Source of the DNA: a virus
Direction: 5' to 3' (one strand)
IMG/VR virus record: IMGVR_UViG_3300025073_000027
Coordinates: 32,001-96,000 of that record
Length of the DNA: 64,000 bases
Shown here piece after piece: positions 450-63,764 of this stretch. The translations under genes were made by a program, and so were the position numbers. The notes under the pieces were generated by a model. That model ran no database searches and was not told the DNA's origin. It saw nothing but the letters and a program-made list of their open reading frames with translations. The stretch's first letter is position 1. Each line of letters begins with the position of its first letter.

Positions 450-3230
450 TTGAAAAAATTACAACAATATTATATTTTTAAAATATCGACATCACGACTT
501 AAAAAATCTAATTATTGCTTAAATTTATCAATAAATGAAGCTCGTAAAACTGGCGAAATAGTATCTATTGGCGACTCTCAAATGCTTCGCTCTTTACGAA
601 AATTGAAAAATCAATCAGTAGATGAAGATACAATTACCCAATTATTTATAGAAAAGAAAAAAATAAAATCTAAGAAATACTCAAAAGAGAATACGGAAAG
701 ATTAATTGAAATTGAAAATCAAATAGACCAATATCTATTTGTACCAGAAATAATTTCGATTTTTGTTAATGATATTAGACATTATGAATATTTGGGTCAA
801 AATAATTTTAAATTAAATAATGTTACGTACAAGCGTTTATTATGTGGCGCAGGACAAGCTAGAAGAAACACATCCATTTGGATTGCTGAATCATATGAAA
901 AATCTTTAAAAACCATTCTCAATAATGATCGAAAAGATATTGAAATTACTCCTGCTAAATTTAACGCATATTTTAGCCTCGCCTCCTCTGCTACACTACC
1001 AGTTTCTACACCTTATTTTTGTGTTGTTCCAGATCATAATATAAAAAGAATAGAACGAGTAGATTATATTCAAGAAATTGAAAATGGTGATGATATCATT
1101 GAAGAACGGGATGAAGAAATAACATTTAATTTATGGGATGGTCAAGGACTAATTTCACCTCGTTTTGCTAAACAATGGGCCGATGAACTAGAATTAGATT
1201 ATATTCCTTCAGCATTTATTATTCGTTCTAATTTTATTAAGGGGATGCTTTGCACAATTGATTTTCATGATTATAGTGAAAATATTGCTGAAAATCATTA
1301 TGTGATAGATATATGGGGCAACAAATATAATATACGTGATGCAGACGTTATCTTAACGGAAAGCCAATTTAAAATTTGGAATGCGTATGAATCTATTGAT
1401 GATTTTGTTGGTAAGTGTAAAAAGAATGATTTAGGTTGGGGTATTAGTCGTGTTACTCCTAAGTATGAAAACACTCATACGTTTTTAAATTATCAGTTTG
1501 TTCAAGTTTTAGATTTAGATAATCAAGATATTATTGACTTGTGCCAACCAACAATAGAATATTTTGAAAACATTACTAAAAATAAAATTGAATACACTTT
1601 ATTATATTTGTTGGGTGAGAAAGCAAATCAAAAACATAATCCAAATATTTTTAATCATCTTTTCGATAATATAACAAAAGCACTCATTCTTAATAATAAA
1701 TTATTAGAAGATCCTTATATAAAAAACTATCTTCTACATAGTCTAAATAAAAAGATTAAACAATCTTATATTGGTAATTTGATCGTAGAGGGTCAATACA
1801 CCATAATAATTGCTGATCCTATTGCCTTTTTAGAATATATTTTTAATTTACCAATAAAAGGTTTGCTGAATAAAGATGAACATTATAGTCATTATTGGTT
1901 AAATAAAAAAGAGACAAAAATAGCAGCAATGCGCGCTCCTCTTACCTGGAAAAGTGAAGTCAATATTTTGAATTTAAAAAGAAATCTTGAAATTGATAAA
2001 TGGTACAAATATCTCAATAATTGTATCGTTTATAATGTATTTGGAAATGATAATTTGCTTCAAGGAGGAAGTGATCAGGATGGCGACATAATTTGTTTAA
2101 CTAATAATAAACAAGTTATTAAAGGTGCTAGTGGTGGTTTACCCATTCATTATGCTACAAAAAAAACTCCGAAACAAAAAATCGTAGAAGAAGAATTATA
2201 TAAATCAGATATAAATGGTTTCAATAATAATGTTGGTTTTGTTACTAATACAGCGACTAGTGCTTTTGCTATCTTGCCAAGGTTGAAAGAAAATAGTCCT
2301 GAATACATTGAAACAATTAATCGCTTAAAGAGATTTAGAAAAGAGCAGGGAGCAACCATTGATGCTACAAAGGGATTAGATATAAAACCTTTTCCTGTTC
2401 ATTGGACTAAATGGAAACGAATTCCTAAAAATGTAAGCGATGAAGAAAGAAAACAGAGAAAATTTGAAAACAGTATAGTCATTAATAAGCGTCCTTATTT
2501 TATGCGGTGGGTTTATTCTGCATATAATCGAAAATATTTAGAATTTAGAAAAAAATATTCTAAAGATTCACATATGCGATTTGACAAAGAATTAGATTTA
2601 CTATTGAATCAGAAATCAAATTGTGATAAATTAAGTGAAGAAGAAATTAGTTTTCTAAATGATTATGCTCAATATAATCCATTAATAGAAACAGATTGTT
2701 TAATGAATAAAATTTCCTGGCATATAGAAAGTAAAATAAAACAATTAAAAATAAGTTTATATAATAAACCCACAGAAGAAATTATTTTAATTTTAAAGAA
2801 TAAAAACATTATCACAGATAAAAAGAAGTATAAAAAACTTTATGATCTTTATAAAATTTATAAAAGTGGGAAAAGGAATTTTTCTAATATTGATAGTGGC
2901 AGCGAATCATTTAAATTTCGAACTATTGAACAATATAATAAATATATTCGTTTAAAAGCCAGTGAGATTTCTTCTAATGGATCTGAATTGGCTAATATGG
3001 CGGTAGATATTTGTTACGTTATTCATCCTACCGATAATAAAAATTTTGTGTGGCAAATATTTGGAGATGAAATTATTGAAAATATTATATTAAATAAGCA
3101 AGAATTTTGTTCTGTTCCATTTCGAGATAAAGGAGGAACTATTGATTATTTAGGAGATAAATATTCTATGTTTAATATAGAAATAAACAATGATGAAAAC
3201 TATGAGTATTTAATATATGAAGATTTTTAA
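450..3230 (+). CDS. yonO: YonO-like single-subunit DNA-dependent RNA polymerase (cellular RdRP-like two-barrel fold)
   Basis: 926 aa; WDGQGLIS, R-x-x-F-I-K-G, MRAP and catalytic GGSDQDGD (DxDGD) motifs; upstream of an HU-like gene and the packaging/head cluster as in SPbeta. Confidence 0.85.
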   Translation: MKKLQQYYIFKISTSRLKKSNYCLNLSINEARKTGEIVSIGDSQMLRSLRKLKNQSVDEDTITQLFIEKKKIKSKKYSKENTERLIEIENQIDQYLFVPEIISIFVNDIRHYEYLGQNNFKLNNVTYKRLLCGAGQARRNTSIWIAESYEKSLKTILNNDRKDIEITPAKFNAYFSLASSATLPVSTPYFCVVPDHNIKRIERVDYIQEIENGDDIIEERDEEITFNLWDGQGLISPRFAKQWADELELDYIPSAFIIRSNFIKGMLCTIDFHDYSENIAENHYVIDIWGNKYNIRDADVILTESQFKIWNAYESIDDFVGKCKKNDLGWGISRVTPKYENTHTFLNYQFVQVLDLDNQDIIDLCQPTIEYFENITKNKIEYTLLYLLGEKANQKHNPNIFNHLFDNITKALILNNKLLEDPYIKNYLLHSLNKKIKQSYIGNLIVEGQYTIIIADPIAFLEYIFNLPIKGLLNKDEHYSHYWLNKKETKIAAMRAPLTWKSEVNILNLKRNLEIDKWYKYLNNCIVYNVFGNDNLLQGGSDQDGDIICLTNNKQVIKGASGGLPIHYATKKTPKQKIVEEELYKSDINGFNNNVGFVTNTATSAFAILPRLKENSPEYIETINRLKRFRKEQGATIDATKGLDIKPFPVHWTKWKRIPKNVSDEERKQRKFENSIVINKRPYFMRWVYSAYNRKYLEFRKKYSKDSHMRFDKELDLLLNQKSNCDKLSEEEISFLNDYAQYNPLIETDCLMNKISWHIESKIKQLKISLYNKPTEEIILILKNKNIITDKKKYKKLYDLYKIYKSGKRNFSNIDSGSESFKFRTIEQYNKYIRLKASEISSNGSELANMAVDICYVIHPTDNKNFVWQIFGDEIIENIILNKQEFCSVPFRDKGGTIDYLGDKYSMFNIEINNDENYEYLIYEDF

Positions 3231-8595: not shown

Positions 8596-8613
8596 ATAAA
8601 AGTTAGATTTTAT
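8596..8613. repeat. ATAAAA-N6-TTTTAT palindrome (spacer GTTAGA)
   Basis: Exact copy 3 bp after the stop of 8383..8592. Confidence 0.7.
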
Positions 8614-12873: not shown

Positions 12874-14247
12874 ATGACTAGTGGAATAAGATATACAGAA
12901 GAACAAGTTATTGATATGATTGAAAATTTTGGTTGTAAATTAGAGAGTTCATATTTGGGAGCAAGAAAAGATGTAACAATAATTTGTGTTTGTGGAAGAA
13001 GATTTACAACTAAATTCTATCGGTTTATAGATAAAAATAATACTCATAGATGCTCAACTTGCGCTAAAAAAATTGCTGCCAAAAAATTAAGGAGTGATTT
13101 TGATGAATTAGTTAGAAATTGTGAAAGTATTGGTTATTTTTATATAGAGGGTGAATATACAACTCGAAATTCACAATTGATATTTGAAGATAGTGAAGGA
13201 TATAAATATAGAGTATCTTATGCTTCAATTTATCATATTTTACAAGGTAAAGTGAAACGTTTGGAAATGTTTAGTTATAATAATCCTTTTACTTTTGAAA
13301 ATATGAAAAATTGGTTAAAGATAAATAAAAACGATTTTGAAATATTGGGTGGTCATTATACAACAAGGAATTCGACATTAATTTCTTATTGTAAAATTTG
13401 CTATAATGAATTTAATTCAAGTTGGATTAATTTAAAAAGTAGAAAATTTTGTCCAGAATGTGAAATAATGGCAATGTCAGATAGATTTAGGTTTAGTGTT
13501 GATAAAGTTAATGAAATTTTAAAAAACGCCGGATATTATTTGGTAAATGGAAATTATGAGGGTTGGGATTCTAAAATGAATCTCGTAGATGATTTTGGTT
13601 ATGAATATTTTTCTTCTATAAATTGTATAATCAAAGGTAGGCTTTCTACTTTTGGAAAAGGAAATCCTTATACCGTTAGTAATATTTGTAAATGGATAGA
13701 AATAAACGAAAAAAATTATAAGTATGTAAAAGGTAAATACATTAATGCGAGAAAGAGAAATTTAATTTTTAATTGTAATAAATGTAAAAACGATTGGAAA
13801 ACTTGTTGGAATGCGATTGAAACTGGTAATTCTTGTCCTAGATGTGGAAATTATTCAAAAGGTGAAACTCGAATAGAAAAATTTTTGTTGAATAATAATA
13901 TTTCTTATGAGAGAGAATATTGGTTTCCTGATTGCAGAAGGTTAATACGTAAACCGTTGGAATTTGATTTTGCAATATTTGATAAAAATAAAAAAATTAT
14001 GATGATCTGCGAATATGATGGTGAGTCCCATTTTATGCCTGTGGATTATGCTGGTAGGGGAGAAGAATGGGCTAAAGAGCAATTAGAGTTATCAAAAGTA
14101 AAAGATGAAATCAAAAATAAATATTGTAAAAATAAGGGTTATAGTTTACTTAGAATCCCTTATTGGGATTTTGATAATATTGAAAAAATACTTGAAGAGG
14201 CATTAAAACCAATTCCATGCCTTAACTTTCAAGGAAAGGAGGTTTAA
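12874..14247 (+). CDS. free-standing homing-endonuclease-like protein (Zn-ribbon repeats plus C-terminal PD-(D/E)XK/Vsr-like nuclease)
   Basis: Repeated CxxC modules; SKGE..I...L, FDFAI, EYDGESH, LLRIPYW; inserted between terL and portal. Confidence 0.75.
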   Translation: MTSGIRYTEEQVIDMIENFGCKLESSYLGARKDVTIICVCGRRFTTKFYRFIDKNNTHRCSTCAKKIAAKKLRSDFDELVRNCESIGYFYIEGEYTTRNSQLIFEDSEGYKYRVSYASIYHILQGKVKRLEMFSYNNPFTFENMKNWLKINKNDFEILGGHYTTRNSTLISYCKICYNEFNSSWINLKSRKFCPECEIMAMSDRFRFSVDKVNEILKNAGYYLVNGNYEGWDSKMNLVDDFGYEYFSSINCIIKGRLSTFGKGNPYTVSNICKWIEINEKNYKYVKGKYINARKRNLIFNCNKCKNDWKTCWNAIETGNSCPRCGNYSKGETRIEKFLLNNNISYEREYWFPDCRRLIRKPLEFDFAIFDKNKKIMMICEYDGESHFMPVDYAGRGEEWAKEQLELSKVKDEIKNKYCKNKGYSLLRIPYWDFDNIEKILEEALKPIPCLNFQGKEV

Positions 14248-15871: not shown

Positions 15872-15976
15872 ATGAAACTTACTCCTATGGATTGGTTAAA
15901 TAGACGTAAAGCGAAGAAAGAAGTTCCAAAAGAAATTCCGAAACAAAGTAATAAAGAGAAAAATAAAAATAAGTAA
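15872..15976 (+). CDS. possible 34-aa basic peptide (not in ORF track)
   Basis: AAGGA SD; MKLTPMDWLNRRKAKKEVPKEIPKQSNKEKNKNK; its stop abuts an ATAAAA-N6-TTTTAT site. Confidence 0.4.
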   Translation: MKLTPMDWLNRRKAKKEVPKEIPKQSNKEKNKNK

Positions 15977-15993
15977 TAAAAGACAAATTTTAT
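15976..15993. repeat. ATAAAA-N6-TTTTAT palindrome (spacer GACAAA)
   Basis: Exact copy. Confidence 0.7.
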
Positions 15994-28674: not shown

Positions 28675-28692
28675 ATAAAATATTGATTTTAT
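28675..28692. repeat. ATAAAA-N6-TTTTAT palindrome (spacer TATTGA)
   Basis: Exact copy, but within a very AT-rich spacer region. Confidence 0.5.
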
Positions 28693-31740: not shown

Positions 31741-32196
31741 ATGACAGACGGTTATAATAGTTGCAACGCGCCTTGTATTTGGATAGAAAATTTATCGAAA
31801 AGAGTAGATAAAATGGAGGATACATTTGGTAATGTTAATAATAAAGTAATCGATATTGATAAAAGATATTCTCTTACTGAAATATTATTAGCTAAATTAG
31901 AAGCGGCATTTACCAATAATACAAATGCGATAATTAGTATTGAGAAGACTATGATATCGATGCAAAATGATATAAAAAATAATGCTTATACTACAATGCG
32001 AATTGAAAGAGAAGTAGGTGAAATAAAGGAAAAATTTGATGCGGCAGAAGAAGTAGCTAAATTAGATTTAAGAGTTGTTTTTAAAAGATTTATTGATAAT
32101 AAAGTTACTTGGATTTTAGGAGGGGGTATTACGATAGTTACTTTATTGGAATTATTAAGTCGTATAGATTGGGATAATTTATCTAAGGCTTTTTAA
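31741..32196 (+). CDS. coiled-coil protein with C-terminal TM segment (possible lysis accessory)
   Basis: GAGGT SD before ATG 31741; heptads then WILGGGITIVTLL. Confidence 0.5.
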   Translation: MTDGYNSCNAPCIWIENLSKRVDKMEDTFGNVNNKVIDIDKRYSLTEILLAKLEAAFTNNTNAIISIEKTMISMQNDIKNNAYTTMRIEREVGEIKEKFDAAEEVAKLDLRVVFKRFIDNKVTWILGGGITIVTLLELLSRIDWDNLSKAF

Positions 32197-34886: not shown

Positions 34887-34931
34887 GAATTTATAAAAAT
34901 AGAAAATAAAAAATAAAAGGAAGATTTTATA

Positions 34932-36887: not shown

Positions 36888-36915
36888 AAGGAGCATTTTA
36901 TAAATGCTCCTTTTT
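36888..36915 (+). terminator. terminator after the MTase gene
   Basis: AAGGAGCATTT-tat-AAATGCTCCTT followed by T tract. Confidence 0.65.
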
Positions 36916-36933
36916 CATTATATGGAGAAATAT

Positions 36934-37953
36934 ATGCCAAGGAAAACATTTAAAAAAATAACAACTACGCCAGAATTAATCAACAGCATTAATTATAAAA
37001 ATAAATTATTGATGGAACGATTTTTAAGAGAAAAAAATGTTCGTTCTTCTGATAAAACTATTGTAAATTATCGTAGTCATTTGAATATATTTTTTGTTTG
37101 GAATTTACAATATAATTCAGATAAATTTTTTTGTGATATTAGGAAAATTGAATTTGCTGATTATTTTAATTTTGTAGTTAATGATTTGAATTGGGGTTCT
37201 GCTAGATTTAATGGCGGCAGATCATGTTTAAGTAGTTTATCGAGTTTTACTGAAAAATTTTTAGATGATGAATATCCTCAATTTAGAAATGTAATTTTAA
37301 AAGCGGTTGAATTAATGCCCAAATCTCCAACAAGAGAAAAAACAGTATTGTCGGAGGATCAAATAAATGGACTATTAAAATACTTATCTGATAATAATGA
37401 TATTCAAGAAGCATGTTGGTTAGCACTTGCTACTTCTTCAGGTGCTAGGTTTTCTGAATTGCTTAGATTTACTACTGATATTATTGATGAGAATAATACG
37501 GTGTTTGAAGGTATTTTTATTGAAACAACCAAAAAGATAAAAACTAAAGGTAGAACAAAAACAGGGAAGTTGCTTACAAAATATATTATAAAAGATTTGT
37601 TTTTATCTTATTATGATAAATGGTTATTGGAACGAGAAAAGATATTATTAGAAAAAGATTTAGATCATAATTATATATTTATAAAAAGGGATGGGACTCC
37701 CGCAGAAGAACATATAGTTAGAAGTTGGATTACCAAGTTTGAAAATTATTTAGGTGTTCCTTTTTATCCTCATGCGTTAAGACATTATCTTACCACTCAT
37801 CTTTTCAGAATAGGACTTCCAGCACAATTAATTAAGGAATTATTTGGATGGGAAAGTTTGGAAATGGCAAGTCTTTATAACGATATGGAAGCAAAAGATA
37901 TGAAATGGAACGAATTAGAAAAATTGAAAGAGCATTTAAATAACAAACAATAA
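36934..37953 (+). CDS. tyrosine recombinase (XerC/D-like; SPbeta YomM position)
   Basis: SGARFSE (R), KGR (K), PHALRH (HxxR), LFGW (W) and SLY (Y) all present; ATG 36934 after GGAG. Confidence 0.9.
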   Translation: MPRKTFKKITTTPELINSINYKNKLLMERFLREKNVRSSDKTIVNYRSHLNIFFVWNLQYNSDKFFCDIRKIEFADYFNFVVNDLNWGSARFNGGRSCLSSLSSFTEKFLDDEYPQFRNVILKAVELMPKSPTREKTVLSEDQINGLLKYLSDNNDIQEACWLALATSSGARFSELLRFTTDIIDENNTVFEGIFIETTKKIKTKGRTKTGKLLTKYIIKDLFLSYYDKWLLEREKILLEKDLDHNYIFIKRDGTPAEEHIVRSWITKFENYLGVPFYPHALRHYLTTHLFRIGLPAQLIKELFGWESLEMASLYNDMEAKDMKWNELEKLKEHLNNKQ

Positions 37954-37967
37954 AATATAAATTTTAT
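37950..37967. repeat. ATAAAA-N6-TTTTAT palindrome (spacer TATAAA) containing the recombinase stop codon
   Basis: TAA 37951-53 lies inside the left arm. Confidence 0.7.
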
Positions 37968-37977
37968 CGTGTTTTTA

Positions 37978-38026
37978 ACCCCCATATATAGACACTAATT
38001 TGATAGTACCCCCACATATAGGGGTA
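37978..38026. repeat. direct repeat pair ACCCCCAYATATAG, 30-bp period (NrdR-box-like)
   Basis: Copies at 37978-37991 and 38008-38021. Confidence 0.55.
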
Positions 38027-50707: not shown

Positions 50708-51466
50708 ATGGCAAATTTAATATTTATCTTTCTATTTTTATTTAATTTAATATTACCAATAAATAATAACAATAATATAGATTATAAAAATGAATTAGAA
50801 AAATATAATATTATATTTACTGGTAATTGGTCTGAAACCAATTTATTTTATGTTTATTCGGGTATTGAATTAGTGGGAAATAAAATACTTGATTATTCTG
50901 ATATTCAAGGCAATTCTATTGATGCATTTGTATGGGCTTATAATATAACTAAAAGGAATCCATTTAAAATAGAATATTATGGTACAGGAAAAGTAGGAGG
51001 AATAGCGAGTTCTTCTAATAGAATAGGGTTTTCTGGTTTTTATAGAAATTATTATTCTTTATGTGAAGACATAGAATTAAGTTCTATAAATTTAGTAATA
51101 CATGAATTAGGACATGCTTTTGAATATTTGGTAGATGAAGAATTAGAGGTAGTTGAATTAATACCTTATATGGTATTAATAGATACAATAAAAAATACTT
51201 ATTTTCCAACTAGGGACGGTACAAATAATAATTTTGGTTTTTGCGGAATAAGGTGGGATTATCAACAAAGCCCAAGTATACATCCTAGAGAAGAATTTGC
51301 AGATATGTTTATAGGTTGGGTTTATGATTGTTGGGAGGATTCTGAAGATGGTAAATTGCGTAGTGAATTTATGGATATTCATATGTCGGTATGGTTAATA
51401 TTAGTAATAAAAGAACATTTTTATCATAAGAGTTACACATTTGGTAGTCGGTATTTTGTATATTAA
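50708..51466 (+). CDS. secreted or membrane-anchored zincin metallopeptidase
   Basis: Hydrophobic N-terminus; IHELGH...EEFADMF. Confidence 0.7.
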   Translation: MANLIFIFLFLFNLILPINNNNNIDYKNELEKYNIIFTGNWSETNLFYVYSGIELVGNKILDYSDIQGNSIDAFVWAYNITKRNPFKIEYYGTGKVGGIASSSNRIGFSGFYRNYYSLCEDIELSSINLVIHELGHAFEYLVDEELEVVELIPYMVLIDTIKNTYFPTRDGTNNNFGFCGIRWDYQQSPSIHPREEFADMFIGWVYDCWEDSEDGKLRSEFMDIHMSVWLILVIKEHFYHKSYTFGSRYFVY

Positions 51467-53793: not shown

Positions 53794-53811
53794 ATAAAAG
53801 ATGAATTTCAT
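53794..53811. repeat. variant palindrome ATAAAA-GATGAA-TTTCAT
   Basis: Contains the TGA of the kinase gene; the nrdJ SD follows on the - strand. Confidence 0.6.
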
Positions 53812-58770: not shown

Positions 58771-58788
58771 ATAAAAGCTAAATTTCGT
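58771..58788. repeat. variant palindrome ATAAAA-GCTAAA-TTTCGT
   Basis: Immediately upstream of the SD of 58494..58754. Confidence 0.5.
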
Positions 58789-58810: not shown

Positions 58811-60028
58811 TTAGATTATATTAACTCTAATTGGGTACAACGATATACCCTTTATCCTGTCATCATATATAAATTCAGGATTACATTTTCTTAAAATATT
58901 AAAACTTCCATTTACATCAGCATTAATCAAAGTGCCATTTTTGGATTGATATAAACCTCTTTTAATTCTTTTTCCACTAAATTTATATTTACCAAATTTA
59001 TCAGGTATAACATCATTATCAATAAAACTGGATTTACTCGTATATTGTTCAGTCATTATTTGAACTTTAATTCCATTTTCCTCTGCTTTATAAATAATCT
59101 TATTTATCAAAGATTCAAAAGGAATTTGAACAAATTTTTGATTATTCTTTTTTCCAATATTGCTTTTTCTTTGCCAATCTTTATTTCTACCAATCACTAT
59201 GTTGTCTATATTATTTTCAATACAATAGTTTATAATCCAGCGACTTACTTTATGTATATGATCTTCTGTAATATTATTTTTTTTAGTTGATATTTTTTTA
59301 ATTCTATTGGATGTACCCTTTCCTATATAACCTTCAGCTTTAGCGAACAATTTATTGTAATAATTATTTATTGATTTTATTATTTTGCCATTTATAACAA
59401 TGGGCTGTAATCCTATGTTATTAGTTAATGTAGCAAAATTATTTATTCCTAAATCAATTGCTAGATGGTTATTATTATAATTTGTTTTTTCTTCAGCTTC
59501 TTTCTCATAAACTATTTCTATTTTATAGCAAGATCCATATGGTACTATTCTGATTTGTTTTAATTCATTTTTGACTATATTGGTTTCTATAAATTTATTT
59601 CTTTTCAAAGAACCCTTTTCTTGAAAATAACATTTATTATCTATTATTTTTAATTGTTGTTTATCAAAAAATGTAACAAATCTTCCATTTTTATTTTTAT
59701 ATTTGGGCAATTTTGGCATACCGCAATATTTCGATTTATTTTTACTCCAATCTTTTATCGCTCTAAAATATGATTTCCAATCTGATCCTAATCGCATAAT
59801 GGTCATTTGAGAAGTTTTAGATGGCAAGGCTTTAAATAATTCATGATGTTTATATTGTTTATTTAAATCAAAAGCAAATAACAATTTTTTATTATTTATA
59901 AATTCCTGTCGCATTATATAGTTGATAAAATTATATAAATTCTTTGATTTATAACATAAATCATCACAATATTTAAATAATCTGTGATTTCGATCAATGA
60001 TATGAATTTGAGTTCTTAATAATTTCAT
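58811..60028 (-). CDS. tnpB: IS200/IS605-family TnpB RNA-guided nuclease (no tnpA in window)
   Basis: LAIDLGINN (RuvC-I), EQYTSK, INADVNG (RuvC-III); 3' hairpin GGGTATA/TGTACCC. Confidence 0.9.
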   Translation of the reverse strand: MKLLRTQIHIIDRNHRLFKYCDDLCYKSKNLYNFINYIMRQEFINNKKLLFAFDLNKQYKHHELFKALPSKTSQMTIMRLGSDWKSYFRAIKDWSKNKSKYCGMPKLPKYKNKNGRFVTFFDKQQLKIIDNKCYFQEKGSLKRNKFIETNIVKNELKQIRIVPYGSCYKIEIVYEKEAEEKTNYNNNHLAIDLGINNFATLTNNIGLQPIVINGKIIKSINNYYNKLFAKAEGYIGKGTSNRIKKISTKKNNITEDHIHKVSRWIINYCIENNIDNIVIGRNKDWQRKSNIGKKNNQKFVQIPFESLINKIIYKAEENGIKVQIMTEQYTSKSSFIDNDVIPDKFGKYKFSGKRIKRGLYQSKNGTLINADVNGSFNILRKCNPEFIYDDRIKGISLYPIRVNII

Positions 60029-60036
60029 TTTTTTTA

Positions 60037-60621
60037 TTATATATTATATTTTTTATCGGCAATATCTATTTCTACAAATTCTAATTGTTGAGGCAGATTA
60101 AAATATCGAGTTAACCAAAAACTATGATAATAAGAAGAATGACCTGTAGCACCCGATTTTCCACTTGGGGTTATGTAATCTATTCTTCTCGTTGGAACTA
60201 ATCCTTGACAATCATATTCTGAAAATAATTTTGCCATCTTTTGACACATATCAAACGGTATAAGAAAGGCAAATGGTATATCGTGTTTAATTGCTTTATC
60301 TATGAATCTGTATTTTAAAGAAAAAGGCGGGTTTGTAATAATTGCTGTCGGTTCATTAAACATTAATGTGTCTTCTAATAGAAAATTAATTGGTTGATTG
60401 CCATTTACTATTCTAATATCGGATGCAAATATATAATATCCATATTTTTGAAGTCTATTAATAATTTTTCCTTCGCCAGCAGAACATTCCCAAATTTTGT
60501 GAATATTTTTTGGAATAAATGATACTAATAAATCAACAGCATAATTAGGAGTTTGAAATAGATCTCTACCCTGCACTTCATTTATTATTTCCGGTTGATT
60601 TGTTTTAGGTTTATTACTCAT
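60037..60621 (-). CDS. DNA adenine methyltransferase
   Basis: FQTP, WECSAGEG (motif I), ITNPPF (motif IV). Confidence 0.85.
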   Translation of the reverse strand: MSNKPKTNQPEIINEVQGRDLFQTPNYAVDLLVSFIPKNIHKIWECSAGEGKIINRLQKYGYYIFASDIRIVNGNQPINFLLEDTLMFNEPTAIITNPPFSLKYRFIDKAIKHDIPFAFLIPFDMCQKMAKLFSEYDCQGLVPTRRIDYITPSGKSGATGHSSYYHSFWLTRYFNLPQQLEFVEIDIADKKYNI

Positions 60622-60639: not shown

Positions 60640-60906
60640 TTAATTAGGTGGTGTTACTTTCACATTATATTTAAAACTATCTATAAAATCTTTTAAACAA
60701 TCTTCACAAATATCAAACTGCCATATTTCCATGTCATATTCACTACCATATTGATATTCAATTGCGAAAGATTGAATAACATCCATCCAAAAGAAATCTT
60801 GTTTATTTTTAGGCTTGAAACTTTTTCCACATTTATTGCATATGATTTCAGTAATTTCTAATTCTTTAATTATTTTTTTTATTTCTCTTGTTTTTTGTAC
60901 CACCAA
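60640..60906 (-). CDS. Zn-binding hypothetical protein
   Basis: CNKCG...YGS.YD...DICEDC. Confidence 0.7.
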   Translation of the reverse strand: MVVQKTREIKKIIKELEITEIICNKCGKSFKPKNKQDFFWMDVIQSFAIEYQYGSEYDMEIWQFDICEDCLKDFIDSFKYNVKVTPPN

Positions 60907-60939
60907 TTATCTCCTTATAAAATAAACTTTTTATTGGTA

Positions 60940-61197
60940 TTACATCGAACTGCCCCACATATCTACTACTTCTCCAAATTCTATCCACATTCGTTTTACA
61001 TATGAACCACAATTTTCACGTTTACCATTATCGTTTCCCCAAATAGCATAACTACAAGCTATCATACCTTCTACTTCTTCAGTAATCCATCTTTCTCCGC
61101 TATCTTGATCAAATATTAACCGATGAATTTTTACCTTTGGACCAAGGAAATTATTTTCTGTTTCTCGCTTATTAACATTAATATCTACATCACCCAT
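60940..61197 (-). CDS. hypothetical protein
   Basis: SD and ATG overlap the palindrome at 61196. Confidence 0.65.
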   Translation of the reverse strand: MGDVDINVNKRETENNFLGPKVKIHRLIFDQDSGERWITEEVEGMIACSYAIWGNDNGKRENCGSYVKRMWIEFGEVVDMWGSSM

Positions 61198-61219
61198 AAA
61201 ATTATCCTTTTATTATTTA

Positions 61220-61432
61220 TTACATATTTTGTAAGTATCGTATTATTTTCATTATGAAATCATCTGCTTTATTTCCTAAAGATGCAAGTAATAGCAAAAA
61301 ATAAAATATAGAAAATAAACCCCAAAAATAAATTGCTTTGTTTATTGCATGAAGTTTTCGTAATTCTTCTATTATTACTTCTGGAAATATTGAGAAAATA
61401 AAAGCAAGCAACATTAAGCCTGTTTGTTTCAT
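61220..61432 (-). CDS. small membrane protein
   Basis: Two hydrophobic segments. Confidence 0.6.
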   Translation of the reverse strand: MKQTGLMLLAFIFSIFPEVIIEELRKLHAINKAIYFWGLFSIFYFLLLLASLGNKADDFIMKIIRYLQNM

Positions 61433-61536
61433 TGATAAGAATTTTTACAAGTTTTACAATACCAACTCAATCCCCATTGATAAAATTCTCGATATTTTTT
61501 ACAATGAGGACACCAGAGAATTTTTAAATTCCTCAC
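61429..61536 (-). CDS. 35-aa Zn-ribbon peptide (not in ORF track)
   Basis: MRNLKILWCPHCKKYREFYQWGLSWYCKTCKNSYQ; GTGA and ATGA coupling on both sides. Confidence 0.6.
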   Translation of the reverse strand: MRNLKILWCPHCKKYREFYQWGLSWYCKTCKNSYQ

Positions 61537-61733
61537 CAAGGACAACCTCCTTCTGTATATAACCAAGATCGACAAAAATATATTTTTAAATGTTTATCAT
61601 AAAACATTCTATCTCCACAATGAGAACAAATACGAGTGTTAGACCAAGCTACATGTCTTTCTCGTTCTAAACCGTCATTTAATTCCCATTGGGGTAGATT
61701 TCTTTCACTTACTTTAGGTTTTTTATATTTCAT
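61533..61733 (-). CDS. Zn-ribbon hypothetical protein
   Basis: AGGAG SD favours ATG 61733; CSHC...C...C. Confidence 0.6.
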   Translation of the reverse strand: MKYKKPKVSERNLPQWELNDGLERERHVAWSNTRICSHCGDRMFYDKHLKIYFCRSWLYTEGGCPW

Positions 61734-61763
61734 TATTTTTATTCTCCTAGTAAAATTCACGTT

Positions 61764-61943
61764 TCATATCCAACTAGCTTCTAAATAAGTTGTTTTATTG
61801 GATTGTTTTTTATTGCATAGATGATCTTCATCTAACCAATAAAATTCACCACAAATATCACAGATATCACAATCGGGAGTTTCTAAATGTGGATATGATA
61901 TTTGAATTGATATTCCGTATGCCCATTCTGGAAATGTATTCAT
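61764..61943 (-). CDS. 59-aa Cys-containing protein (not in ORF track)
   Basis: AAGGA SD; MNTFPEWAYG...CDICDICG...; TGA lies in a palindrome arm. Confidence 0.6.
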   Translation of the reverse strand: MNTFPEWAYGISIQISYPHLETPDCDICDICGEFYWLDEDHLCNKKQSNKTTYLEASWI

Positions 61944-61970
61944 GTATTTATTCCTTATAAAATCCTTGTT

Positions 61971-62297
61971 TTATTTGATTGCAGGAAACTTTTTATTTTT
62001 CTTTCTAGCACCCTTTACTATTTCATCCCATTCATTCTCTAATTCTGTACGTTTTTGTACATGTTGTTGACACAAACTCCATAATTCATCTGAGTATGGA
62101 TAGCAACGGCGAAAAGGATAAAAACCGTATCTGCCATTATTTAATTCTTCTAAGTCTTTATTACCTCTAAGTTCAATACATTTACCTTCACTCGTTGTAT
62201 AAGCATCAGTATAAATAATAATTGGAAATCCTTTAATTGTTCCTGCTTCTAAGCCGGTGGGAATAAATATGTATTTGTTATTTATTATTTTATCCAT
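61971..62297 (-). CDS. hypothetical protein
   Basis: ORF track; TAA lies in a palindrome arm. Confidence 0.65.
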   Translation of the reverse strand: MDKIINNKYIFIPTGLEAGTIKGFPIIIYTDAYTTSEGKCIELRGNKDLEELNNGRYGFYPFRRCYPYSDELWSLCQQHVQKRTELENEWDEIVKGARKKNKKFPAIK

Positions 62298-62359
62298 TTG
62301 TTATTTTATTCTAATAAAAATATAGTTTTATCTGGTTTTCTTATAATAAAAACGTTATT

Positions 62360-62575
62360 TTATTGGTTCAGAGCAGGTATATTCCAGAAAGCAGGATATT
62401 CCCTTCTCATATGTCTTGTCGCTAATATTCTTTGCAAGATATGAATACTGTTTTTAAAATCATTAACATCATCGGCATTTAAATCCTCTAGCCTAATAAA
62501 AGTATTCCACGCCTGAACAATGTGATGTATAACACAATATTCCTCATAAGTTAAACCAGTTTCTTCGTGTTCCAT
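62360..62575 (-). CDS. hypothetical protein
   Basis: AWN.F..L...D..DF...IH.LQ helical motif; TAA lies in a palindrome arm. Confidence 0.7.
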   Translation of the reverse strand: MEHEETGLTYEEYCVIHHIVQAWNTFIRLEDLNADDVNDFKNSIHILQRILATRHMRREYPAFWNIPALNQ

Positions 62576-62600
62576 TTTTATTCCTTATAAAAGCATTATT

Positions 62601-62759
62601 TTATTGTTTATAAAATGGTAATCGTGAATCCGCTCCACGTTTTACTTTATCCTTAGAAAGTCCTAAAGATTTTGCTACTTTTTCTATATTTTGAAGATGA
62701 CTACATATACGATAATTTTTATCTTCTATTGTAATTGTATAAAAGTATATATTGTTCAT
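62601..62759 (-). CDS. 52-aa hypothetical protein (not in ORF track)
   Basis: MNNIYFYTITIEDK...LPFYKQ; TAA lies in a palindrome arm. Confidence 0.5.
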   Translation of the reverse strand: MNNIYFYTITIEDKNYRICSHLQNIEKVAKSLGLSKDKVKRGADSRLPFYKQ

Positions 62760-62808
62760 TTTGTTTTTTTATAACCAAAACTTATTTATTTTTTTATATT
62801 TATAATAT

Positions 62809-63066
62809 TTACATTTTTTTTACTGGCTTATCGGGTATAAAATTAATCTTATGTGAAAGCCATTGTTTTAAACTATATTCAATATCGAGGTAATAAAATA
62901 TTTCATTCATATATTCTTTTATCCAACTATAGATTTCTCGTAAACCAAAATTTAATAAGCTGAATTTTCTCGCTTTACAAATATACCAATCCCAATATGA
63001 TATATGTTCACAATGAAGGCATAGGTGATTTTTGTATATTTCTTGCATTTGTTTATTTTTATCCAT
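62809..63066 (-). CDS. hypothetical protein
   Basis: CLHC...C; SD follows the palindrome at 63085. Confidence 0.6.
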   Translation of the reverse strand: MDKNKQMQEIYKNHLCLHCEHISYWDWYICKARKFSLLNFGLREIYSWIKEYMNEIFYYLDIEYSLKQWLSHKINFIPDKPVKKM

Positions 63067-63098
63067 TATCCATTTGTTTTCCTTATAAAATATCGGTT

Positions 63099-63266
63099 TT
63101 ATTGTTTATTATTTTCTACCCAATATAAAAATTGATCCAATTCGGATTTAGCATATCCATGCCTTGATTGTATATCTTGATAATCATCATATTTATCTAA
63201 GGTTTCAAGATATTCTGTTACCCATTCATTATATAATTCTAAAAATATTCTTGTTTCAATATTCAT
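63099..63266 (-). CDS. 55-aa hypothetical protein (not in ORF track)
   Basis: AAGGA SD; MNIETRIFLELYNEW...VENNKQ; TAA lies in a palindrome arm. Confidence 0.6.
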   Translation of the reverse strand: MNIETRIFLELYNEWVTEYLETLDKYDDYQDIQSRHGYAKSELDQFLYWVENNKQ

Positions 63267-63294
63267 TTACTTATTTCCTTATAAAATTGTGGTT

Positions 63295-63498
63295 TTATTC
63301 TGAAATATATTTATTTGTATCCATAAATTTAATATCAATAGCACTCGATAAAATATTTATAAGTTTTCCTGTTTTAACATCTTCTAAACAATAGCAATGA
63401 TAATTATCAATCATATATGAATACCAAAATAATCCCATCTTCCATTCAATACCTATTTGATATTTACATAATCTATATTGAGGTTCTAATTTAATCAT
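63295..63498 (-). CDS. hypothetical protein
   Basis: AGGA SD; TAA lies in a palindrome arm. Confidence 0.6.
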   Translation of the reverse strand: MIKLEPQYRLCKYQIGIEWKMGLFWYSYMIDNYHCYCLEDVKTGKLINILSSAIDIKFMDTNKYISE

Positions 63499-63530
63499 TT
63501 GTTTTTCCTAATAAAATCTAATTTTTATCA

Positions 63531-63764
63531 TTATAAATTTTTAAGTTCCCATTCTAAATCTTCTATTTTATTTTTTAATTCTTCTATGTCATCATCATAT
63601 CTTTTTTCAAGAACATCCAATTCATCTGCATATTCATAACATAAATTTCTTAATCGATCATTGACTTTTCTAATTACTTTCAGTTCCTTTTCAATTTCAT
63701 CAATGCTAGGGCAAGAGTGTTCAATGTTATCAATTTTTCTAGTTCGTTCACTATAAATAGTCAT
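63531..63764 (-). CDS. coiled-coil hypothetical protein
   Basis: SCP.ID...R..N..LR motif. Confidence 0.65.
   Translation of the reverse strand: MTIYSERTRKIDNIEHSCPSIDEIEKELKVIRKVNDRLRNLCYEYADELDVLEKRYDDDIEELKNKIEDLEWELKNL

Follow-up and report, generated by a model that had tools for sequence, protein, structure and literature searches.

An 18-base palindrome at the gene junctions of SPbeta/YonO-polymerase phages, probably a built-in site of gene exchange

The element investigated here is a palindrome, ATAAAA-N6-TTTTAT, that recurs in a stretch of 64,000 nucleotides (the window) covering positions 32,001 to 96,000 of the virus record IMGVR_UViG_3300025073_000027. Each copy (dyad) is 18 bases long and consists of two inverted six-base arms around a six-base centre, or core, that differs from copy to copy. 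The dyad is probably a built-in gene-exchange site because it marks points of gene swapping in related phages, and we lean towards reading the copies as core-addressed crossover sites where gene modules would pass between related phages through a reaction of the tyrosine-recombinase type. A first-pass annotation of the window had described a local array of sites at 60917-63528. The dyad instead proved to be spread genome-wide, with 53 exact copies in the whole genome of the phage (G000, a single 137,722-bp contig that contains the window and has overlapping ends), and the array itself does not stop with the window but reaches genome position 98.5 kb.

Gene calls from a simple custom gene caller gave 229 genes in three blocks (90% coding), with a plus-strand structural block located between two minus-strand blocks of mostly small genes. 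Fifteen exact dyads were present in the window compared to 0.31 expected from dinucleotide-preserving shuffles, and none of 100 shuffles reached fifteen; the expectation of about 0.3 exact copies per 64 kb given in the first-pass annotation agreed with the shuffles. A scan of spacings in the window returned fifteen dyads at N6 and one each at N5, N7 and N8, while the whole genome contained 53 at N6 and 0 to 3 at every other spacing from N3 to N10. Relative to an order-3 Markov model of the whole genome, exact dyads were in large excess (53 observed, 1.25 expected) and one-mismatch dyads were twice as frequent as expected (37 against 18.6), while two-mismatch (compensated) dyads were not enriched (134 against 162). 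Taken together, the excess of exact N6 copies, the flat counts at other spacings and the Markov counts indicate a motif that is real, sharp and bound to a 6-bp gap. Chance or base composition as the origin of the dyads was ruled out by the shuffles, the spacing scans and the Markov model. A comparison of N6 with N5 and N7 and a genome-wide scan against a Markov background had both been suggested with the first-pass annotation, and both supported the motif. The sites of the window, given without strand, and the array genes are as follows.

8596-8613: exact site in the structural (plus-strand) block, from the motif match
15976-15993: exact site after the portal gene, from the motif match
28675-28692: exact site in the structural block, from the motif match
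34913-34930: exact site with a ribosome-binding site in the core and an ATG 1 nt past the arm
37950-37967: exact site over the stop codon of the recombinase gene, from the motif and the gene calls
51407-51424: exact site near the end of the plus-strand block, intragenic by our own gene calls
53794-53811: one-mismatch site with a TTTCAT arm, at a junction, from the motif scan
58771-58788: two-mismatch variant with a TTTCGT arm, from the motif scan
60917-60934: exact site, core TAAACT on the plus strand; on the minus strand AAGGAG and the start of the open reading frame (ORF) 60640-60906 follow
61196-61213: exact site, core TTATCC; the minus-strand ORF 60940-61197 has a start codon that overlaps the arm and a ribosome-binding site in the core
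61751-61768: degenerate site, GTAAAA-N6-TTTCAT, with two mismatches
61957-61974: exact site, core TCCTTG; gene 61971-62297, upstream of it, has its stop codon inside the arm
62314-62331: exact site, core ATATAG; the next site is 14 nt away with no ORF between (an 'empty slot')
62346-62363: exact site, core ACGTTA; the stop codon of 62360-62575 is inside the arm
62587-62604: exact site, core GCATTA, from the motif match
63085-63102: exact site, core TATCGG, from the motif match
63281-63298: exact site, core TTGTGG, from the motif match
63511-63528: exact site, core TCTAAT, from the motif match
60640-63764, minus strand: thirteen small ORFs of 35-108 aa between the sites, from the gene calls

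All coordinates and spacers that had been listed for the nine exact array copies were verified in the sequence. The exact copies listed elsewhere in the window were also present, although those at 34913 and 51407 had been overlooked, and the three variants noted earlier exist with two mismatches each at 58771 and 61751-61768 (given as 61750) and one at 53794.

The dyad is a clade character of the SPbeta/YonO-polymerase phages. A 168-kb uncultured relative with a terminase about 70% identical (G001, of which the record G002 is an identical part) carried fifty-five exact N6 dyads and none of a reversed-pattern control. SPbeta carried thirteen compared to 0.1 expected and zero at N4, N5 and N7-N10, and exact N6 dyads were likewise found in phi3T (fourteen), BUCT082 (fifteen), Clostridium phage c-st (thirteen) and Psychrobacillus phage Perkons (nine, plus about 29 sites with ATGAAA half-sites). 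The motif-bearing relatives encode a YonO-type RNA polymerase. Enterocloster phage PMBT24 had no exact N6 dyad. Across eighty loci around RecD2-like helicases (1.16 Mb), fifty-five dyads were spaced at N6, five at N5 and one at N7, and these were concentrated in the nearer relatives with hardly any in a remote gut clade whose GC is similar. One such relative with a helicase 48% identical (L067:13508-19341) had nine sites downstream of the helicase gene, mostly of ATGAAA/TTTCAT half-sites. Since this locus mostly uses that form and Perkons mixes both, position 3 of the half-site can be any purine, and the half-site consensus is AT(A/G)AAA with the gap fixed at 6 bp. Conservation of the arms is strict over 6 bp in G000, with weakly symmetric flanks, and covers about 11 bp in SPbeta, the two half-sites being alike. 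No description of the dyad was found in the literature searched, which did not cover the original SPbeta genome paper.

The two halves of the site vary independently of each other. Among thirty-eight Perkons sites, G/C, A/T and mixed forms numbered 8, 9 and 21 where 9, 10 and 19 are predicted under half-site independence, and every mixed half-site form was present in L067. Hairpins drawn from the nine array sites had predicted free energies of -0.3 to -2.6 kcal/mol, five of the nine being no better than shuffled sequence, and twelve of the seventeen one-mismatch junction variants in G000 that fall at pair 3/16 break pairing on the sense strand. With half-sites that vary independently and a marginal RNA hairpin, the evidence therefore favours a double-stranded DNA site read by a symmetric protein dimer over an RNA or terminator element.

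Exact sites were located at gene junctions in each of the four gene-called genomes, with 50 of 53 in G000, 52 of 55 in G001, 11 of 13 in SPbeta and 13 of 14 in phi3T. The earlier statement that all sites are at junctions therefore holds for most of the genome and fails in the window for the intragenic site 51407. When sites with at most one mismatch were counted per junction in G000, a site was present at 44 of 85 junctions of the left small-gene block, at 24 of 87 of the right one and at only 5 of 56 of the structural block. The TAA at arm positions 2-4 provided the upstream stop codon or an in-frame second stop in thirty of the fifty G000 junction sites, and the distance from a site to the next start codon ranged from -8 to more than 100 nt. 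Within the array, a stop codon was inside the arm at 5 of 9 sites by our own gene calls (six had been reported, the overlap itself being genuine), and AAGGA or TAGGA directly abutted the other arm at 6 of 9, in keeping with the first-pass description of the Shine-Dalgarno sequence of the next gene abutting that arm at most array sites.

Cores are nearly unique within a genome. In the four genomes, one pair of sites (at most one mismatch) had the same core compared to 12.1 pairs expected from column composition (Poisson 1e-4), with 0 observed and 4.7 expected in G000 alone and 1 observed and 5.6 expected in G001. Between genomes the cores are conserved. SPbeta and phi3T have twenty-six same-core sites, of which eleven have both flanks conserved, nine have one flank conserved and six have neither. 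SPbeta site 116414 matches phi3T at 18 of 18 positions beside a gene that is only 32% identical in protein, and the same site and core occur at SPbeta 99497 and phi3T 88477 (L037, L050) in opposite orientation with both flanks unrelated. An island of this kind other than 116414 is inverted with respect to the sequence around it. Three helicase loci (L060, L063 and L065) have five cores in common, in the same order and with unrelated flanks, and one of these cores, AGAAAG, recurs in G000 as far upstream of the helicase gene as in these loci. The first-pass annotation had proposed a system that tolerates spacer mismatch; such tolerance is unlikely as a general rule because cores are near-unique within genomes and conserved between genomes.

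Borders of homology between relatives were often located at the sites. SPbeta and phi3T form a mosaic of 75-100% identical blocks, and a breakpoint occurred in 15 of 32 junctions with a site (at most one mismatch) compared to 23 of 163 without one (Fisher p = 9e-5), while the reverse comparison gave 12 of 29 and 28 of 160, respectively (p = 0.006). Under a stricter null, 9 of 42 junction-zone breakpoints were within 12 nt of a site compared to 5.6% of junction-zone bases (p = 4e-4). In the alignments, homology started at the first bases of sites 83687, 113663 and 131161, stopped inside the right arm at 86885, and stopped after the left arm at 87598, where the cores are unlike. Comparison of a phage collection with SPbeta gave seven records in which the match stops at the last base of site 116414-116431, five in which it begins at base 1-2 of site 95562 and two in which it stops at the last base of a two-mismatch site. 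One of two control junctions had no break at its centre; the other had breaks and, on closer examination, contains a single ATAAAA half-site. Two single-gene indels and one replacement between L063 and L065 were bounded by sites or decayed sites, and a fourth indel was not (3 of 4). Alignment of relatives had been suggested earlier as a check, and the ends of gene gain, loss and replacement often coincided exactly with sites.

A mechanism can be proposed in which a symmetric protein dimer would read double-stranded dyads that border exchangeable gene modules in SPbeta/YonO-polymerase phages. When two related phages or prophages are in one cell, strand exchange would occur at sites with the same core, and left or right neighbours would be swapped with the gene order undisturbed. 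Unlike cores would stop a genome from deleting its own segments, and core matching would fit the need of tyrosine recombinases for identity in the overlap region. A more specific version, put forward tentatively and as possible rather than probable, is a natural recombinase-mediated cassette exchange with identical arms and genome-unique 6-bp cores as addresses, in which a YomM-family enzyme swaps accessory genes only at matching positions. If true, gene order would be kept while accessory content turns over fast. Enrichment, fixed spacing, junction position, conservation in the clade, half-site independence, homology borders at sites, and near-unique and conserved cores are what we observed, and the protein, the chemistry and exchange as a selected function are what we infer. 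Two tyrosine recombinase genes were present in the genome.

36904-37953, plus strand: YomM-like tyrosine recombinase with the catalytic R, HxxR, W and Y present
G000:125510-126409 (L137:2510-3409), outside the window, minus strand: second tyrosine recombinase, canonical Xer-like, E = 4e-30 to a solved XerC-like chain

The enzyme at 36904-37953 corresponds to SPbeta yomM, likewise among tail genes, and is the candidate reader of the sites. A YomM-like recombinase was present in all eight motif-bearing genomes tested (G000, G001, SPbeta, phi3T, BUCT082, c-st, Perkons and MT835481), and no homologue was found in the motif-free PMBT24. The best solved relatives of both enzymes are Xer-type, with IntI4 only a partial and weak match to the second. 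This second enzyme also has all catalytic residues; as a site reader it was rejected since it tracks the motif worse, its nearest named-phage homologue being in the motif-free PMBT24 and none being present in BUCT082.

Several observations weigh against core-addressed exchange. Most breakpoints are away from recognisable sites, including all but the nine of 42 junction-zone breakpoints noted above for SPbeta and phi3T, and no significant excess was obtained for L063 and L065 (3 of 9 compared to a 26% null) or for five other pairs. The Fisher test leaves uncorrected the joint clustering of sites and breakpoints in accessory regions. Cores common to G000 and G001 were at chance level (8 compared to about 9), and one L063/L065 indel resembles an exchange between unlike-core sites. 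The arms are short for a tyrosine recombinase at 6 bp, and the link to the YomM-like enzyme, which the first-pass annotation had placed at 36934 as possibly acting on the sites, is one of co-occurrence among related genomes with a single negative case. Laboratory hybrids of SPbeta and phi3Ts are reported to have 15 of 16 recombination sites in ordinary homologous regions, and the one non-homologous junction, listed as 'following yosA', may or may not be site 116414 (bioRxiv 10.1101/2020.05.06.055103). The border comparisons use relatives only, the array at 60917-63528 itself being without a close relative to compare. The arms in G000 are entangled with stop codons and ribosome-binding sites and may have a role in expression.

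The strongest competing explanation, though we consider it unlikely, is that a conserved DNA-binding protein of phage or host, regulatory or architectural, binds the dyads, for example to control early and accessory genes, and that recombination there is a by-product of a short common sequence as proposed for the PeSL elements discussed below. Direct selection on a binding site is the simplest account of an element strictly conserved among very distant phages, and symmetric and independent half-sites would suit such a protein as well. The sites are just upstream of ribosome-binding sites, at several borders they move with the downstream gene, and they fill junctions of the small-gene blocks far more often than those of the structural block. 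Recombination through ordinary homology in the laboratory hybrids also fits. A regulator blind to the core, however, leaves unexplained the sites kept at 18 of 18 positions, core included, beside unrelated flanks or a gene 32% identical in protein, and the deficit of repeated cores within genomes. Nor is there a fixed promoter geometry, as the next start codon is from -8 to more than 100 nt away and promoter-like sites in the array were not enriched (43 compared to 51 in shuffles). A sigma-70 promoter was rejected on these same grounds, the distance to start codons being too variable to be compatible with one.

That the dyads act at the RNA level is very improbable. In this view they would form small hairpins for termination, processing or translational coupling of cistrons. 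The stop codon in the 5' arm at thirty of fifty G000 junction sites and the ribosome-binding site often located past the 3' arm would suit such a role, and eleven of twelve left-arm variants change A to G and keep a G.U pair, although the stop codon is kept as well. Set against this are the marginal hairpins, the pair 3/16 variants that unpair on the sense strand and the lack of enrichment of two-mismatch compensated forms reported above. Covariation was not found in Perkons or L067, and stop codons overlap the sites far less often in G001 (16 of 52) and in SPbeta (3 of 11). Terminator-like sites in the array numbered three compared to 1.3 in shuffles with none at dyads. An RNA hairpin, terminator or processing site was rejected on the low stability, the lack of covariation and the pair-breaking variants.

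Hardly credible is an identity with the operators of the recombinase-fold repressor MrpR/SroF (SPBRE), which the first-pass annotation had named as an alternative, or with promoters for the YonO polymerase. The phage does belong to the SPbeta/YonO group, which represses via repeated elements, and SPBRE likewise recurs between genes in this phage family, its reader being a recombinase-fold protein. The published accounts describe it, however, as a motif of 15 bp found in about ten promoter regions and bound by MrpR/SroF as a monomer at a 24-26-bp non-palindromic box (PMC10516654; bioRxiv 10.1101/2025.11.27.690993), and thus as longer, fewer in copies and differently read than the dyad. Words common to the regions upstream of seven MrpR targets were unlike the dyad. 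SPBRE identity was rejected as the dyad is palindromic, present in 53 copies and mostly at gene ends. YonO is reported to begin transcription of the late operon at a single position, located upstream of yonK (PMC5467207), on which ground a YonO promoter was rejected, and most dyads are in the non-late blocks.

The array genes are on the minus strand. Twenty-two small array genes are located downstream of the helicase gene (genome 92.6-98.5 kb), five of which had a homologue among the relatives compared while seventeen did not. Three of these five homologues adjoin a site elsewhere, and one stands across the helicase gene in L063. Pairs of unlike-core sites 1-14 nt apart with no gene between resemble empty slots and were observed at window 62314-62363, G000:124128-124164 and G000:18264-18300, with further pairs of this kind at L060:3767-3806, L060:4234-4273 and L063:2835-2871. 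A hairpin of the CCCC-ATATAT-GGGG type follows site 37950 (window 37968-38010) and joins genome sites 106210 and 106125 (G000:106125-106227), and is possibly a terminator between paired sites.

The phage is a large tailed member of the SPbeta/YonO-polymerase group and encodes a terminase, a portal and a tape-measure protein in addition to a large serine recombinase, TnpB and genes of nucleotide metabolism. About 130 nt are repeated at the two contig ends (G000:1-130 and 137590-137722), and the assembly is therefore circular or terminally redundant. Single-protein scans of viral and metagenome contigs gave no close relatives of this phage, and the genome is alignable with G001 over only about 8 kb. 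Nothing but pieces of this phage and noisy joints with short sides came from contigs of four DNA sequencing runs compared to genome 88-108 kb. Other genes of the window include the YonO homologue, which is at the head of the structural block, and two that adjoin the array.

450-3230, plus strand: YonO homologue, a single-subunit RNA polymerase (926 aa, PF05183; 35% identical to BUCT082 and 26% to SPbeta YonO)
12874-14247, plus strand: HNH/homing-endonuclease-like gene between the terminase and portal genes
58811-60028, minus strand: TnpB/IS605 OrfB-type gene, directly adjoining the array
60037-60621, minus strand: small gene with an NPPF motif, likely to encode an adenine methyltransferase, adjoining the TnpB gene and the array

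The DNA of the TnpB gene is similar to copies in Bacillus phage G, Lak phages and a Staphylococcus phage.

Since the 1970s the mosaicism of phage genomes has been attributed to exchange between modules at their borders, which may or may not be defined by dedicated sequences. The dyad is a sharply defined site common to Bacillus, Psychrobacillus, Clostridium and uncultured phages that coincides base for base with module borders and has position-specific cores. SPbeta also carries the site and is a model amenable to genetics, which makes the idea directly testable, and if confirmed the dyads would represent a new kind of gene-exchange device and a natural set of orthogonal recombination sites.

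The dyad system is not an integron, as the first-pass annotation had likened it to. Integron attC sites are imperfect palindromes of 57-141 nt with R'', L'', L' and R' boxes (GTTRRRY core) that fold as single strands. The likeness is in promoterless, one-orientation arrays of single genes separated by imperfect palindromes. The phage sites differ in that they are 18 bp and without attC-type structure or a GTTRRRY core (attI, Pc and IntI-specific insertion were not searched for), are spread genome-wide, and are exchanged apparently between matching positions of related genomes.

PeSL (promoter-early stem-loop) elements of T4-type phages are sigma-70 promoters with terminator stem-loops that recombine via mutual similarity (Arbiol et al. 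2010, PMC2839356). Like the dyads they are short, conserved and intergenic and stand on either side of small dispensable genes of variable regions, and the insertions, deletions and replacements of relatives end there. The dyads differ in being 18 bp with an own core each, marginal hairpins and no promoter enrichment. The pdif sites of Acinetobacter plasmids are described as 28 bp long, with inverted arms, one for XerC and a different one for XerD, around a 6-bp centre; they are ascribed to the Xer proteins of the host and border accessory modules shuffled between replicons (PMC6449649, PMC13141974, PMC5790767). The same arrangement of inverted arms and a 6-bp centre was found here, N6 alone being enriched in every genome examined. 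The dyad half-sites, unlike the 11-bp arms of pdif, are identical to each other and conserved over 6 bp (about 11 bp in SPbeta), and the replicon is a phage.

Heterospecific lox and FRT sites, used in engineered cassette exchange, have 13 bp arms and an 8-bp spacer that must match between partners. The dyads resemble them in having identical inverted arms and unlike spacers, which in the engineered sites keep those on one molecule from reacting. They differ in that lox and FRT sites are an engineering device with longer arms and spacer, while the dyads are known here from sequence alone; we know of no natural system with dozens of heterospecific sites of this kind. Cores in the phages differ within a molecule, with the single same-core pair described above, and match between partners, with fifteen of the twenty-six common SPbeta and phi3T sites having at least one flank replaced.

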